Assembly: GCF_001677475.2 (NCBI RefSeq)
Contig: NZ_CP015229.1
Direction: 5' to 3' (one strand)
From: Escherichia coli
Lineage (GTDB): Bacteria; Pseudomonadota; Gammaproteobacteria; Enterobacterales; Enterobacteriaceae
DNA: 64,000 bases
A program made the translations under genes and the position numbers. Within the stretch, counting starts at the first letter, position 1. Each line of letters opens with the position of its first letter. This document shows, in pieces, positions 8,850 through 57,194 of the stretch. The notes beneath the pieces are model-generated. The model did not search any database, had not been told where the DNA came from, and was given only the letters and a program-made list of their open reading frames with translations.

Positions 8850-9076
8850 TGTTTGTACTCCCAAAGGTTCGCAACAATTTGTAAGCGTGTATTCTTAAAA
8901 AAGCTCACGTTCGTCACCAGCTAAATCTGGTATGAATTTCAGCCTAAATTGTTACAAAGCATATTAAACAGCAGCTTAAGTATACAATTTATTCGGCGAA
9001 ACATTATTGATTCTGTTGATATGATCACGTTATACCCAATGTGCGCATTATCAAACAGACAAAGGGAATCAACGAG

Positions 9077-9649: not shown

Positions 9650-11971
9650 ATGATGAATGATTCGTTCTGCCGCATTATTGCGGGTGAAATTCAGGCGCGC
9701 CCGGAACAGGTTGAAGCCGCCGTTCGCCTGCTTGACGAAGGGAATACCGTGCCGTTTATCGCACGTTATCGTAAGGAAATCACCGGCGGTCTGGATGACA
9801 CGCAGTTGCGTAATCTGGAAACGCGTCTGAGCTACCTGCGCGAGCTGGAAGAGAGACGTCAGGCGATCCTCAAGTCCATTTCTGAGCAAGGTAAACTCAC
9901 CGATGAGCTGGCGAATGCCATCAACGCCACCTTAAGCAAAACCGAACTCGAAGACCTCTATCTGCCCTACAAACCTAAACGCCGCACCCGTGGGCAAATC
10001 GCCATTGAAGCAGGTCTTGAGCCGTTGGCTGACCTGCTGTGGAGCGATCCGTCACACACGCCAGAAGTCGCCGCTGCACAATATGTTGATGCCGATAAAG
10101 GCGTGGCAGATACCAAAGCTGCGCTGGACGGCGCGCGCTATATCCTGATGGAACGGTTTGCCGAAGATGCCGCGCTGCTGGCAAAAGTGCGTGATTATCT
10201 GTGGAAGAACGCGCATTTGGTTTCTACGGTGGTGAGCGGTAAAGAAGAGGAAGGGGCGAAATTCCGCGACTATTTCGATCATCACGAACCGCTGTCAACG
10301 GTGCCTTCTCACCGCGCGCTGGCGATGTTCCGTGGGCGTAACGAAGGCATACTCCAGCTTTCGCTGAATGCCGATCCACAGTTCGATGAGCCGCCGAAAG
10401 AGAGCTATTGCGAGCAAATCATCATGGATCATCTCGGCCTGCGCCTGAACAATGCCCCGGCGGATAGCTGGCGCAAAGGCGTGGTGAGCTGGACGTGGCG
10501 CATCAAGGTGCTGATGCATCTGGAAACCGAACTGATGGGCACCGTGCGCGAACGTGCGGAAGATGAAGCAATCAACGTCTTTGCCCGTAACCTGCACGAT
10601 CTGCTGATGGCGGCCCCAGCCGGACTGCGTGCCACGATGGGCCTCGATCCGGGTCTGCGTACTGGGGTAAAAGTGGCGGTAGTCGATGCAACCGGCAAAC
10701 TGGTGGCGACCGACACCATTTACCCGCACACCGGACAAGCCGCAAAAGCAGCGATGACCGTTGCTGCCCTGTGTGAAAAGCATAATGTTGAACTGGTGGC
10801 GATCGGCAACGGTACAGCTTCCCGCGAAACTGAGCGTTTCTATCTCGATGTCCAGAAACAGTTCCCAAAAGTGACCGCGCAGAAAGTGATCGTCAGCGAA
10901 GCAGGCGCGTCGGTTTACTCGGCTTCAGAGCTGGCTGCACAGGAGTTCCCGGATCTCGACGTTTCGCTGCGTGGCGCGGTGTCTATCGCCCGCCGTTTGC
11001 AAGATCCGCTGGCGGAGCTGGTGAAAATCGATCCGAAATCTATCGGCGTAGGTCAGTATCAGCATGACGTCAGCCAGACGCAGCTGGCACGCAAACTGGA
11101 TGCAGTAGTAGAAGACTGCGTAAACGCTGTTGGCGTCGATCTCAACACCGCTTCTGTTCCGCTGTTAACCCGCGTGGCGGGCCTGACGCGCATGATGGCG
11201 CAAAACATCGTGGCCTGGCGCGATGAGAACGGTCAGTTCCAGAACCGTCAGCAACTGCTGAAAGTGAGCCGTCTGGGGCCGAAAGCCTTCGAGCAGTGCG
11301 CGGGCTTCCTGCGGATTAACCACGGCGATAACCCGCTTGACGCCTCTACCGTTCACCCGGAAGCCTATCCGGTGGTGGAACGCATTCTGGCAGCAACACA
11401 GCAGGCACTGAAAGATCTGATGGGTAACAGCAGCGAGCTGCGTAACCTGAAAGCGTCTGACTTTACTGATGAAAAATTCGGTGTACCGACGGTAACTGAC
11501 ATCATCAAAGAGCTGGAAAAACCGGGTCGCGATCCGCGTCCGGAATTTAAAACCGCTCAGTTTGCCGATGGCGTCGAGACAATGAACGACCTGCAACCGG
11601 GTATGATCCTCGAAGGCGCAGTGACCAACGTCACCAACTTTGGCGCGTTTGTCGATATCGGCGTGCATCAGGACGGCCTGGTTCACATCTCTTCATTGTC
11701 GAATAAGTTTGTGGAAGATCCGCATACCGTGGTGAAAGCGGGCGATATTGTGAAGGTGAAAGTGCTGGAAGTGGATCTTCAGCGTAAACGTATCGCCCTG
11801 ACCATGCGTCTGGACGAGCAGCCTGGCGAAACCAACGCGCGTCGCGGCGGCGGGAATGAACGTCCGCAAAACAACCGCCCGGCAGCCAAACCGCGTGGGC
11901 GTGAAGCGCAGCCTGCCGGTAACAGCGCGATGATGGATGCGCTGGCGGCGGCAATGGGCAAAAAACGTTAA
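9650..11971 (+). CDS. tex: Tex/YhgF transcription accessory protein (S1 domain, YqgF/RNase H-like and HhH domains)
   Basis: 773-aa ORF; C-terminal S1 domain ([21 protein letters not shown]). Confidence 0.95.
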
Positions 11972-11995
11972 ACGCCCTGATAGACAAACGTAAAC

Positions 11996-12027
11996 CTGCC
12001 AGATAAGGCGTTCACGCCGCATCTGGC
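11996..12027. repeat. REP-like palindromic element downstream of tex
   Basis: CTGCCAGATAAGGCGTTCACGCCGCATCTGGCA, REP-type imperfect palindrome. Confidence 0.55.
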
Positions 12028-12054
12028 AACGAACGCCTTGCCTGACATAAAAGT

Positions 12055-12080
12055 GCCGGAGAATATCTCCGGCCTTTTTA
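12055..12080 (+). terminator. Rho-independent terminator after tex
   Basis: GCCGGAGAATATCTCCGGC hairpin followed by CTTTTTA. Confidence 0.75.
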
Positions 12081-12207
12081 TTCCACAACCAAACTCTCAA
12101 TATATCCCGTTAATATTTATCACTTCATTAACAACTGAAACCTTAATTAAACATTAACCAGTCCTGGTAATTCGCTATTCGAATTATATTTTCGCTGCGA
12201 TATAACC

Positions 12208-12221
12208 TTGAGCCACATCAA
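12208..12221 (+). promoter_or_regulatory. Candidate FNR site in the feoABC promoter region
   Basis: TTGAGccacATCAA resembles the FNR consensus TTGAT-N4-ATCAA. Confidence 0.5.
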
Positions 12222-12275
12222 TATTGAGTCAGATTATTATTCAAACCAACATTCGCACACATTTTAAGTATTGCT

Positions 12276-12303
12276 GATAGAAACCATTCTCATTATCATT
12301 GTG
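12276..12303 (+). promoter_or_regulatory. Candidate Fur box in the feoABC promoter region
   Basis: GATAGAAACCATTCTCATTATCATTGTG resembles the Fur consensus GATAATGATAATCATTATC. Confidence 0.5.
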
Positions 12304-12410
12304 TTGTTGATTATTTAATCTCTCCTTCGTTGGCAAATCATCTGGTCTCATGTCGCTGTCAAACGCCCCATGAGGTAGTTATCCAGTTAATGAGAAACAA
12401 GTAGGCACCT

Positions 12411-12638
12411 ATGCAATACACTCCAGATACTGCGTGGAAAATCACTGGCTTTTCCCGTGAAATCAGCCCGGCATATCGCCAAAAACTGCTTTCTCTAGGC
12501 ATGTTACCTGGCTCCTCTTTTAATGTGGTGCGCGTCGCTCCACTCGGCGACCCCATTCATATCGAAACCCGTCGTGTGAGCCTGGTATTACGCAAAAAAG
12601 ATCTGGCCTTATTAGAAGTGGAAGCGGTTTCCTGTTAA
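12411..12638 (+). CDS. feoA: Ferrous iron transport protein A
   Basis: 75-aa ORF immediately upstream of feoB. Confidence 0.95.
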
Positions 12639-12654
12639 TACGGTGATAACAACA

Positions 12655-14976
12655 ATGAAAAAATTAACCATTGGCTTAATTGGTAATCCAAATTCTGGCA
12701 AGACAACCTTATTTAACCAGCTCACTGGTGCACGTCAGCGTGTAGGTAACTGGGCTGGTGTTACCGTCGAACGTAAAGAAGGGCAATTCTCCACCACCGA
12801 TCATCAGGTCACGCTGGTGGACCTGCCCGGCACCTATTCTCTGACCACCATCTCATCGCAGACCTCGCTCGATGAGCAAATCGCCTGTCACTATATTCTG
12901 AGTGGCGACGCCGACCTGCTGATTAACGTGGTGGATGCGTCTAACCTTGAGCGTAACCTGTACCTGACGCTGCAACTGCTGGAACTCGGCATTCCCTGCA
13001 TCGTGGCACTGAACATGCTCGACATTGCCGAGAAGCAAAATATTCGTATTGAAATTGATGCTCTGTCGGCGCGTCTTGGCTGCCCGGTGATCCCGCTGGT
13101 TTCAACCCGTGGTCGCGGTATTGAAGCGCTCAAGCTGGCGATTGATCGCTATAAAGCTAACGAGAATGTGGAACTGGTGCATTACGCACAGCCGCTACTC
13201 AACGAAGCAGATTCACTGGCAAAAGTGATGCCTTCCGACATCCCGCTGAAACAACGTCGCTGGCTGGGCCTGCAAATGCTGGAAGGCGATATCTACAGCC
13301 GCGCCTACGCCGGTGAAGCGTCGCAGCATCTGGATGCCGCCCTCGCCCGTCTGCGTAATGAGATGGACGATCCGGCGCTGCACATTGCCGATGCGCGTTA
13401 CCAGTGCATTGCTGCCATCTGTGATGTGGTAAGCAACACCCTGACGGCAGAACCCAGCCGTTTCACCACTGCGGTAGATAAAATCGTGCTCAACCGTTTC
13501 CTCGGTCTGCCGATTTTCCTCTTTGTGATGTACCTGATGTTCCTGCTGGCTATCAACATCGGCGGGGCGTTACAGCCGCTGTTTGATGTCGGTTCCGTGG
13601 CGCTGTTTGTGCATGGTATTCAGTGGATTGGCTACACGCTCCACTTCCCGGACTGGCTGACTATCTTCCTCGCCCAGGGCCTGGGCGGCGGTATTAACAC
13701 CGTGCTGCCACTGGTGCCGCAGATCGGCATGATGTACCTGTTCCTCTCCTTCCTTGAGGACTCCGGCTATATGGCGCGTGCGGCGTTTGTGATGGACCGT
13801 CTGATGCAGGCGCTGGGCTTGCCGGGGAAATCCTTTGTACCGCTGATCGTTGGTTTCGGTTGTAACGTACCGTCGGTAATGGGCGCACGTACGCTTGATG
13901 CACCGCGTGAACGTCTGATGACCATCATGATGGCACCGTTTATGTCCTGCGGCGCGCGTCTGGCTATCTTCGCAGTATTTGCGGCTGCCTTCTTCGGGCA
14001 GAACGGTGCGCTGGCGGTCTTCTCGCTGTATATGCTCGGTATTGTGATGGCGGTGCTGACTGGCCTGATGCTCAAGTACACCATCATGCGCGGTGAAGCG
14101 ACGCCGTTTGTCATGGAGCTGCCGGTCTACCATGTACCACACGTTAAAAGCCTGATTATCCAGACCTGGCAGCGTCTGAAAGGCTTCGTTCTGCGTGCTG
14201 GTAAAGTGATTATCATCGTCAGCATTTTCCTGAGTGCTTTCAACAGCTTCTCTCTGAGCGGGAAAATCGTCGATAACATCAACGACTCGGCGCTGGCTTC
14301 CGTCAGCCGGGTGATCACCCCAGTCTTCAAGCCGATTGGCGTGCATGAAGATAACTGGCAGGCAACGGTTGGCCTGTTTACAGGCGCAATGGCGAAAGAA
14401 GTGGTGGTGGGTACGCTCAACACCCTCTACACCGCAGAAAATATTCAGGACGAAGAGTTCAATCCGGCGGAATTTAACCTCGGTGAAGAGCTGTTCAGTG
14501 CGGTAGATGAAACCTGGCAGAGCCTGAAAGACACCTTCAGCCTTAGCGTACTGATGAACCCGATTGAAGCGAGCAAAGGCGACGGCGAAATGGGTACCGG
14601 GGCGATGGGCGTGATGGATCAGAAATTCGGTAGCGCAGCTGCCGCATACAGCTACCTGATTTTCGTCCTGCTGTATGTACCGTGCATCTCGGTGATGGGT
14701 GCTATCGCCCGTGAATCAAGCCGTGGCTGGATGGGCTTCTCCATCCTGTGGGGGCTGAATATCGCTTACTCGCTGGCAACATTGTTCTATCAGGTCGCCA
14801 GCTACAGCCAGCATCCAACTTACAGCCTGGTGTGCATTCTGGCGGTTATCCTGTTTAACATCGTGGTTATCGGTTTGCTGCGTCGCGCGCGTAGCCGGGT
14901 GGATATCGAACTGCTGGCAACGCGCAAATCGGTAAGCAGTTGCTGCGCAGCCAGCACCACCGGTGATTGCCATTAA
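12655..14976 (+). CDS. feoB: Ferrous iron transporter FeoB (N-terminal G-protein domain plus polytopic permease)
   Basis: Track ORF 12643..14976; start at [21 protein letters not shown] (P-loop), 773 aa. Confidence 0.96.
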
Positions 14977-56373: not shown

Positions 56374-56494
56374 GATTTCGTCCTTTTTAAGGTGATTATT
56401 TACACCTTAGCGCAAAGCGGACGTGGTTCCTACTGGAGTGCGCATAACGAACACAAGCACTTCCCGTGGATAAATTGAAAACGAAAGATCAAAA

Positions 56495-56584
56495 AAAAGC
56501 CAGCACCCGGCTGGCTAAGTAATACTGGAAGCAATGTGAGCAATGTCGTGCTTTCAGGTTCTCCGCGAGGGTCTTCCTGATCGC
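56495..56584 (-). ncRNA. ryhB: RyhB small RNA (Fur-repressed iron-sparing sRNA)
   Basis: Minus-strand sequence reads GCGATCAGGAAGACCCTCGCGGAGAACCTGAAAGCACGACATTGCTCACATTGCTTCCAGTATTACTTAGCCAGCCGGGTGCTGGCTTTT, matching RyhB as I recall it, ending in a GC-rich hairpin plus U-tract. Confidence 0.9.
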
Positions 56585-56586
56585 GA

Positions 56587-56607
56587 GACAATAATAATCA
56601 TTCTCAT
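56587..56607 (-). promoter_or_regulatory. Fur box overlapping the ryhB promoter
   Basis: Minus strand AATGAGAATGATTATTATTGTC immediately upstream of the RyhB 5' end. Confidence 0.6.
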
Positions 56608-56705: not shown

Positions 56706-57194
56706 ATGAGTGAGATAGTGATACGCCACGCAGAAACACGGGATTACGAGGCCATCAGGCAGATTCACGCCCAGCCGGAGGTGTATTGCAACACACTACA
56801 ACTACCTCATCCTTCGGAAGGCTGGTGGCCAGAAAGATTGAAAGATCGCCAGGGGTTTAAACAACTGGTTGCCAGCATTGATGGCATCGTGGTGGGTCAT
56901 CTTTTCATTGAGGCTTATCAAGGCCCACGCCGTAGTCATGTTGCAACTTTTGGTATCTGTGTTGACTCCCGCTGGCACAACCGCGGCGTCGCCAGCGCCC
57001 TGATCCGCGAATTGATTGAAATGTGCGACAACTGGTTACGGATAGATCGTATTGAGTTGACGGTGTTTGCGGATAACGCCCCGGCAATCGCCGTCTATAA
57101 AAAATTCGGCTTTCACATAGAAGGCACCGGCAAAAATTACGCTTTTCGTAATGGTGAATATGTCGATGCATATTATATGGCGCGGGTGAAATAA
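56706..57194 (+). CDS. yhhY: YhhY, GNAT-family N-acetyltransferase
   Basis: Track ORF 56628..57194; start at ATG 56706 (MSEIVIRHAETRDY); 162 aa; the N-terminal extension in the track overlaps the ryhB promoter. Confidence 0.9.
   Translation: MSEIVIRHAETRDYEAIRQIHAQPEVYCNTLQLPHPSEGWWPERLKDRQGFKQLVASIDGIVVGHLFIEAYQGPRRSHVATFGICVDSRWHNRGVASALIRELIEMCDNWLRIDRIELTVFADNAPAIAVYKKFGFHIEGTGKNYAFRNGEYVDAYYMARVK

Follow-up and report, generated by a model that had tools for sequence, protein, structure and literature searches.

The feoABC operon imports the soluble Fe2+ of anoxic habitats such as the gut, and its regulation is textbook material; the first description of its promoter dates from 1993 (Kammler, Schon and Hantke 1993), and later papers cite the same work for the activation of feoABC by FNR (Kammler 1993). 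The sites at feoA have also been mapped in genome-wide studies, for FNR by Myers 2013, for ArcA by Park 2013 and for Fur by Gao 2023. The region considered here, which joins the lack of oxygen (FNR, ArcA) and the lack of iron (Fur) at an Fe2+ import operon, is the control region of E. coli K-12 feoAp itself: the FNR 14-mer, the Fur footprint and the ArcA site of K-12 all map onto the window (the whole stretch of E. coli DNA analysed, 64,000 nucleotides), and what differs farther upstream does so at the strain level only: a T-to-C change in the ArcA/OmpR site, a few substitutions within 12080-12200 and, after tex, a REP region of reduced length. The finding is real, functional and already known, and its confirmation adds nothing new. 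What may hold the specialist are the rigid, far-upstream position of FNR, which is at odds with the -41.5 rule, and natural insertions of IS elements that part the activator sites from the core promoter in some isolates.

Beyond K-12, four groups of described systems are close enough for comparison. The feoA promoter resembles the class II FNR promoters narG, nirB, dmsA and yfiD in operator type, with a matrix score at the median level, but its FNR site lies about 49 bp farther upstream, centred at -90.5 rather than at -41.5. With class I CRP and FNR promoters, in which the activator binds at -61.5 or one to three helical turns beyond and works through the alpha C-terminal domain, it shares an upstream placement and a tight spacing, although this type is very rare for FNR and the alpha contact at feoA is putative. 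CRP activates from -92.5, a position only 1-2 bp off that of the feoA FNR site. The Fur-repressed ryhB promoter, like feoA, carries an AT-rich hexamer array over its core promoter with iron-dependent occupancy; the feoA box is the poorer match to consensus (13/19 as against 16/19), and feoA adds anaerobic activators and a repression that is visible mainly without oxygen. In Yersinia pestis, finally, the same operon is under Fur control and has putative FNR and ArcA motifs, as in E. coli, but the authors of that work could not detect any similarity in sequence with the E. coli region, and there FNR, ArcA and RstA are without effect and Fur repression is absent aerobically.

The ORF list of the window gives the gene order ompR, greB, tex (yhgF), feoA, feoB, feoC and yhgA around the feoABC spacer, which measures 439 bp between the tex stop codon (11971) and the feoA ATG (12411). 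At 39.4% GC, and 32% across 12080-12340, against 52.4% for the window, it bears out an earlier, sequence-only note that had described a roughly 440-bp AT-rich region between tex and feoA. A 501-base query around the finding was matched in 5,425 of 5,426 complete E. coli genomes, with yhgF and feoA flanking by annotation. Published coordinates were converted by offsets verified at three separate landmarks (U00096.2 = window + 3,525,774; NC_000913.3 = window + 3,527,752). The features are as follows, with promoter positions counted from the mapped start.

11997-12079, plus strand: REP-like element, then the tex terminator hairpin (12055-12073) and a T run (terminator scan, Rfam)
12114-12134 (-191 to -171), minus strand: ArcA direct-repeat site (Park 2013 Tables S3, S4 and S6)
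12208-12221, no strand: FNR site TTGAGCCACATCAA, centred at about -90.5 (matrix, ChIP-seq match in K-12, conservation)
12246-12266 (-59 to -39), plus strand: conserved block between the FNR site and the -35 (alignment, information profile)
12271-12276 (-34 to -29), plus strand: putative -35 hexamer TTGCTG, read from the sequence; TTG conserved; 3/6 match to consensus
12273-12306 (-32 to +2): Fur operator as ChIP-exo footprint, containing the 25-mer GATAGAAACCATTCTCATTATCATT at 12276-12300 (-29 to -5) (Gao 2023, consensus, conservation)
12294-12299 (-11 to -6), plus strand: putative -10 hexamer TATCAT; 5/6 match to TATAAT; almost invariant across genera
12305, plus strand: mapped start, +1 (from Park 2013 Table S6)
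12305-12410 (+1 to +106), plus strand: feoABC 5' untranslated leader, 106 nt, 42% GC
12399-12405, plus strand: Shine-Dalgarno sequence AAGTAGG, conserved, within the leader
12411-12638, plus strand: feoA coding sequence (ORF list; annotation of matching E. coli records); its ATG is at +107
from 12655, plus strand: feoB, from the first ATG in the ORF 12643-14976, which fits the 17-bp feoA-feoB spacing annotated in K-12; then feoC

The first ~110 bp of the spacer, consisting of the REP-like element and the tex terminator, are context: they lie outside the control region and are not transcribed with feo. Searched against Rfam at E <= 1, 11900-12700 returned sub-threshold REP- and terminator-related matches only, with none in the leader or control region; the REP-derived family naRNA4 gave such a sub-threshold match at 11997-12074. 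The REP-like region at 11975-12030 is ~17 bp shorter than that of K-12 and differs in sequence, for which reason the alignments of K-12-type genomes begin only at base 51 of the 501-base query. Nearer to feoA the two strains are almost the same: 12208-12303 differs from K-12 MG1655 at the single position 12222, directly 3' of the FNR 14-mer, and 12208-12410 at two single bases (12222 and one in the leader), with both motifs identical letter for letter; farther upstream there are a few substitutions in 12080-12200.

The FNR-like site that the earlier note had reported lies at 12208-12221 and reads TTGAG-CCAC-ATCAA, so that 9 of the 10 half-site bases agree with TTGAT-N4-ATCAA. Scored with a symmetric matrix built from the 62 sites that Myers 2013 Table S6 marks as ChIP-positive, with feoA excluded, it reaches 15.6 bits, more than any other position in the 64-kb window and nearly the median of the bound sites themselves (15.7; range 12.1-21.8); 0.2 such matches are expected per shuffled 64 kb, and P = 0.005 in the shuffled spacer. 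The identical sequence in K-12, TTGAGCCACATCAA at U00096.2 3537982 (window 12208), has a PatSer score of 14.6, above threshold, and is marked at an FNR ChIP-seq peak assigned to feoA (Myers 2013). The peak itself is placed at 3538050 (window 12276) in the main-text tables of that study, about 60 bp off the motif, and at 3537996 (window 12222) in its supplementary peak table. Another FNR-like sequence, at 12110-12123, was rejected: its 10.4 bits fall short of every bound site, and its left half is unconserved. The runner-up of the matrix scan, TTGAGGCTTATCAA at 56908-56921 (12.9 bits), lies ~300 bp from the Fur box of ryhB.

The Fur-like site of the earlier note likewise found its counterpart in published data. 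Fur ChIP-exo peak P104 (feoA, intergenic), at U00096.2 3538047-3538080 or window 12273-12306, was detected in MG1655 in the iron-replete condition only; the peak sequence GCTGATAGAAACCATTCTCATTATCATTGTGTTG is identical to the window's and encloses the whole 25-mer GATAGAAACCATTCTCATTATCATT at 12276-12300 (Gao 2023, supplement). The footprint, upstream of feoABC, spans the promoter spacer, the -10 hexamer and the start site. Against the 19-bp Fur consensus GATAATGATAATCATTATC the match is a moderate 13/19, and it recurs at an offset of 6 bp (registers 12279 and 12285), the repeat length of Fur hexamer arrays; in shuffled spacers one 13/19 match arises with P = 0.16 and an in-register pair with P = 0.01, and 15 positions of the window score at least 13/19, as against 6.4 in shuffles. 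The best Fur-consensus match of the window, GACAATAATAATCATTCTC at 56587-56605 (16/19), is the ryhB promoter and serves as an internal positive control for the scan; ryhB itself (Rfam RF00057, 83 bits, minus strand, 56491-56555) has this Fur box just upstream. A further Fur ChIP-exo peak falls in the ompR-greB spacer at 3534739-3534772 (window 8965-8998), in iron-replete and iron-starved cells alike (Gao 2023), and at 8965-8998 the consensus scan gave no strong Fur box.

Both sites stand out in comparison across the family. A FeoA-based scan, taking one genome per species, yielded 80 Enterobacteriaceae loci, and an alignment over 24 genera places the most conserved stretch of the spacer at TTG(a/c)TGATA(g/a)AAACCATTCTCATTATCAT, with the FNR half-sites as the second peak; this profile is partly circular, since the -10 block served to anchor the loci and the FNR register to filter them, but without that filter 77 of the 80 still passed the matrix. 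The Fur/-10 block ATTCTCATTATCAT is present with at most two mismatches in all 80 species. The upstream FNR site reaches at least 9 bits in 77 of the 80 and at least 12 bits in 65; the species lacking a site of at least 9 bits are two of Cedecea and the Enterobacteriaceae isolate RIT691. Between the FNR site and ATTCTCATTATCAT, 55 loci have a distance of 78 bp, 21 have 77 bp and a single one has 68 bp. The intervals on either side, by contrast, are free: leaders measure anywhere between 36 and 238 nt, and upstream of the FNR site the DNA is unalignable between genera. The 68-bp locus (L060, Enterobacter sp. kpr-6) shows a clean 10-bp loss in the variable spacer relative to its relative L067, and a loss of 10 bp preserves the helical phase to the core promoter.

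One could still read both motifs as functionless chance matches in AT-rich DNA, given that a single 13/19 Fur match turns up in 16% of shuffled spacers and that the window holds six one-mismatch matches to TTGAT-N4-ATCAA where 2.5 are expected. We consider this reading refuted and give it next to no credence: FNR and Fur occupy their sites in vivo in K-12, on the same sequence, and the sites persist in 77-80 of the 80 species while their flanks diverge. For the Fur site, ChIP-exo and near-invariance in 80 species are stronger evidence than the consensus match. The earlier note had proposed to judge the two sites by scores above threshold and by agreement with mapped sites, and on both counts the FNR and Fur sites hold.

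The start site ties these elements to a promoter. It comes second-hand from a supplementary table of Park 2013, in which the ArcA site at 3537888-3537908 is placed at -191 to -171 from the mapped start; this puts the start at 3538079, or window 12305. A search of the literature full text for start-site coordinates returned unrelated numbers only. As judged from the letters, TTGCTG and TATCAT are probably the core hexamers of feoABC: they are separated by a 17-bp spacer, with the start 6 nt past the -10, a spacing in keeping with sigma-70 promoters (16-18 bp between the hexamers and 5-9 nt from the -10 to the start). A consensus scan of 11900-12500 returned no sigma-70 promoter, since it demands 4/6 matches per hexamer and TTGCTG has 3/6.

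A different pair is on record for the same spacer. Shimada 2014 lists TTATCA (12293-12298) and TTTAAT (12314-12319), 15 bp apart, for the yhgF-feoA spacer, which would shift the start to ~12326 and have Fur block the -35 rather than the -10, and the early leader TGTTGATTATTTAA is well conserved. This pair is, however, a computational pick inside a SELEX peak; its 15-bp spacing is poor, Enterobacter, Leclercia and Lelliottia carry TTTAAC, with C in place of the critical final T, and the start in the Park 2013 table is 12305. We regard it as very unlikely to be the feoA promoter, and retain TTGCTG-17-TATCAT as the probable core.

Measured from 12305, the centre of the FNR site at -90.5 falls outside the class II position (-41.5 +/- 4), and FNR bound there could therefore not make the class II contacts with sigma region 4 and the alpha N-terminal domain. 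Among 23 FNR-activated promoters with known start, 19 have their site at -41.5 +/- 4 and one at -60.5, and the authors of that survey emphasise how rare sites at -61.5 or farther upstream are; activation from about -90 would be almost unknown for FNR. The very prevalence of the class II placement (-41.5 to -45.5), by far the commonest geometry of FNR activation, lends some appeal to a second, unannotated class II promoter served by FNR, with AACATT (12248-12253) as its -10 and a start at ~12256-12260, and with Fur acting as a downstream roadblock to transcripts that would have to cross its operator. In agreement with it, many genera conserve an ACATTC block 26 bp past the FNR site, which in Salmonella and Citrobacter reads TACATT, and two promoters have been proposed for Yersinia pestis feoABC, with Fur on the downstream one. 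We nevertheless hold it to be improbable: AACATT matches the -10 consensus at only 3 of 6 positions; the block is unconserved in Klebsiella, Kluyvera, Raoultella and Kosakonia, where the FNR site and its spacing persist; and the 10-bp deletion of L060, lying between the FNR site and the block, would wreck the class II geometry but keeps the phase to the downstream promoter. Moreover, sigma-70 occupancy at feoA is without an oxygen-dependent change, and the literature consulted uses a single start site.

FNR most likely acts like a class I activator on the annotated promoter, as we infer from a site so far upstream, a fixed spacing and a sole short variant that differs by 10 bp. The spacing between the FNR site and the core promoter (77-78 bp in 76 species, 68 bp in one, with free flanking intervals) is consistent with a constraint on phase. 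Published regulation agrees with the direction of control: feoABC is among the operons whose FNR activation is masked by Fur repression in iron-replete medium (Myers 2013), and a feoA-lacZ fusion was repressed by Fur only anaerobically, which was ascribed to activation by ArcA and FNR (Beauchene 2015). Together with the mapped FNR and Fur sites, this sustains the suggestion of the earlier note that the region places ferrous iron uptake under anaerobic and iron control.

The remaining activator sites lie farther upstream. Park 2013 gives the ArcA site as TTGTTAATGAAATGATAAATA on the minus strand (U00096.2 3537888-3537908). Of two feo promoter fragments used in EMSA, OmpR shifted the larger one only, and this fragment holds TTATCAtttcaTTAACA at -294 to -278 from the ATG, or window 12117-12133 (Gerken 2020). 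The OmpR motif thus overlaps the ArcA site at 12114-12134, and the core TTATCAC..TTAACA of the ArcA site is kept in most genera. Position 12123, inside this site, is C in the window as in most other genera and T in K-12 (TTATCAcTTCATTAACA); by sequence comparison, K-12 may be the exception.

Between the FNR site and the -35, the block at -59 to -39 is a possible site for a helper factor. It reads ACATTCCGTCACATTTTA in most genera, resembling an RstA/OmpR box, and ACATTCGCACACATTTTA in all four Escherichia species; the Salmonella version, TACATTCCGTCACA, closely resembles the RstA box TACAtntngtTACA given by Gerken 2020. The same study named CCAACAttcgCACACA in this block as a candidate, and the E. 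coli fragment bearing CCAACAttcgCACACA was unshifted by OmpR (Gerken 2020). The Escherichia sequence ACATTCGCACACATTTTA looks like a lineage-specific rewrite of a conserved element.

Taking these observations together, we are confident that the region functions as the feoABC promoter/operator, with a sigma-70 start at ~12305, probable occlusion by Fur, activation by FNR, ArcA and OmpR, and most likely a class I-like mode for FNR. Sigma-70 RNA polymerase would use TTGCTG-17-TATCAT and start at about 12305. With plentiful iron, Fe2+-Fur on 12273-12306 would exclude polymerase; its position over -32 to +2 suggests classical promoter occlusion, and its occupancy and iron dependence are published. 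When oxygen is lacking, a [4Fe-4S] FNR dimer on TTGAGCCACATCAA, about 90 bp upstream of the start, raises transcription, and ArcA (12114-12134) and OmpR add activation from farther upstream. FNR would contact the flexible alpha C-terminal domain from one face of the helix, possibly aided by a factor at -59 to -39. A more specific version, which we put forward tentatively and at somewhat below even chances, is that activation from about -90 is phase-locked family-wide and probably proceeds via a helper or a bend at the -59/-39 block, the helper perhaps differing between genera.

The earlier note had also described a long AT-rich leader, and here the sequence between start and ATG disagrees: from 12305 the transcribed leader has only 106 nt, rather than ~440, and 42% GC. 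The term is a misnomer, because most of the AT-rich DNA is untranscribed promoter DNA upstream of the start. Folding models predict a hairpin at about 12341-12376, and yet the window's leader folds no better than its shuffles (z = -0.08), RNAalifold on 36 leaders returned no consensus pairs, and the central leader parts, folded singly, give a hairpin in most genera with a mean z of only -0.67. A structured leader RNA with a conserved hairpin is thus, on these folding models, a weak and unproven proposal. Where it is predicted, the hairpin is GC-rich and sits in the same place in most genera with differing sequences. Escherichia and Citrobacter, for example, have the arms CTCATG/CATGAG, Klebsiella has GCGCCG/CGGCGC, Phytobacter CATGCGC/GCGCATG, and two further species TTCGTACGC/GCGTATGAA. 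The segment is wholly absent from Enterobacter, Leclercia and Lelliottia, the leaders of which have 36-41 nt. A short leader ORF (ATG at 12351, 7 codons) was rejected, there being no ATG at that place in Salmonella.

Within E. coli, alleles of the 111-bp core diverge by up to about 5% and retain both the FNR and the Fur site; they vary by a C/T exchange within the FNR spacer, by a single base of the block at -59 to -39 and by two bases at -2/-1. An intact spacer is absent from about 28 of the 5,426 E. coli genomes. In the urine isolate E. coli EC488 (NZ_CP109874.1), an IS1 adjoins the tex terminator at window ~12090 and a deletion reaches rtcB, so feoABC and its neighbours are wholly absent. 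In the swine isolate E. coli PEC301 (NZ_CM168013.1), ISApl1 lies between the FNR site and the feoA -35, at window ~12270, and separates all upstream activator sites from the core promoter and the Fur box.
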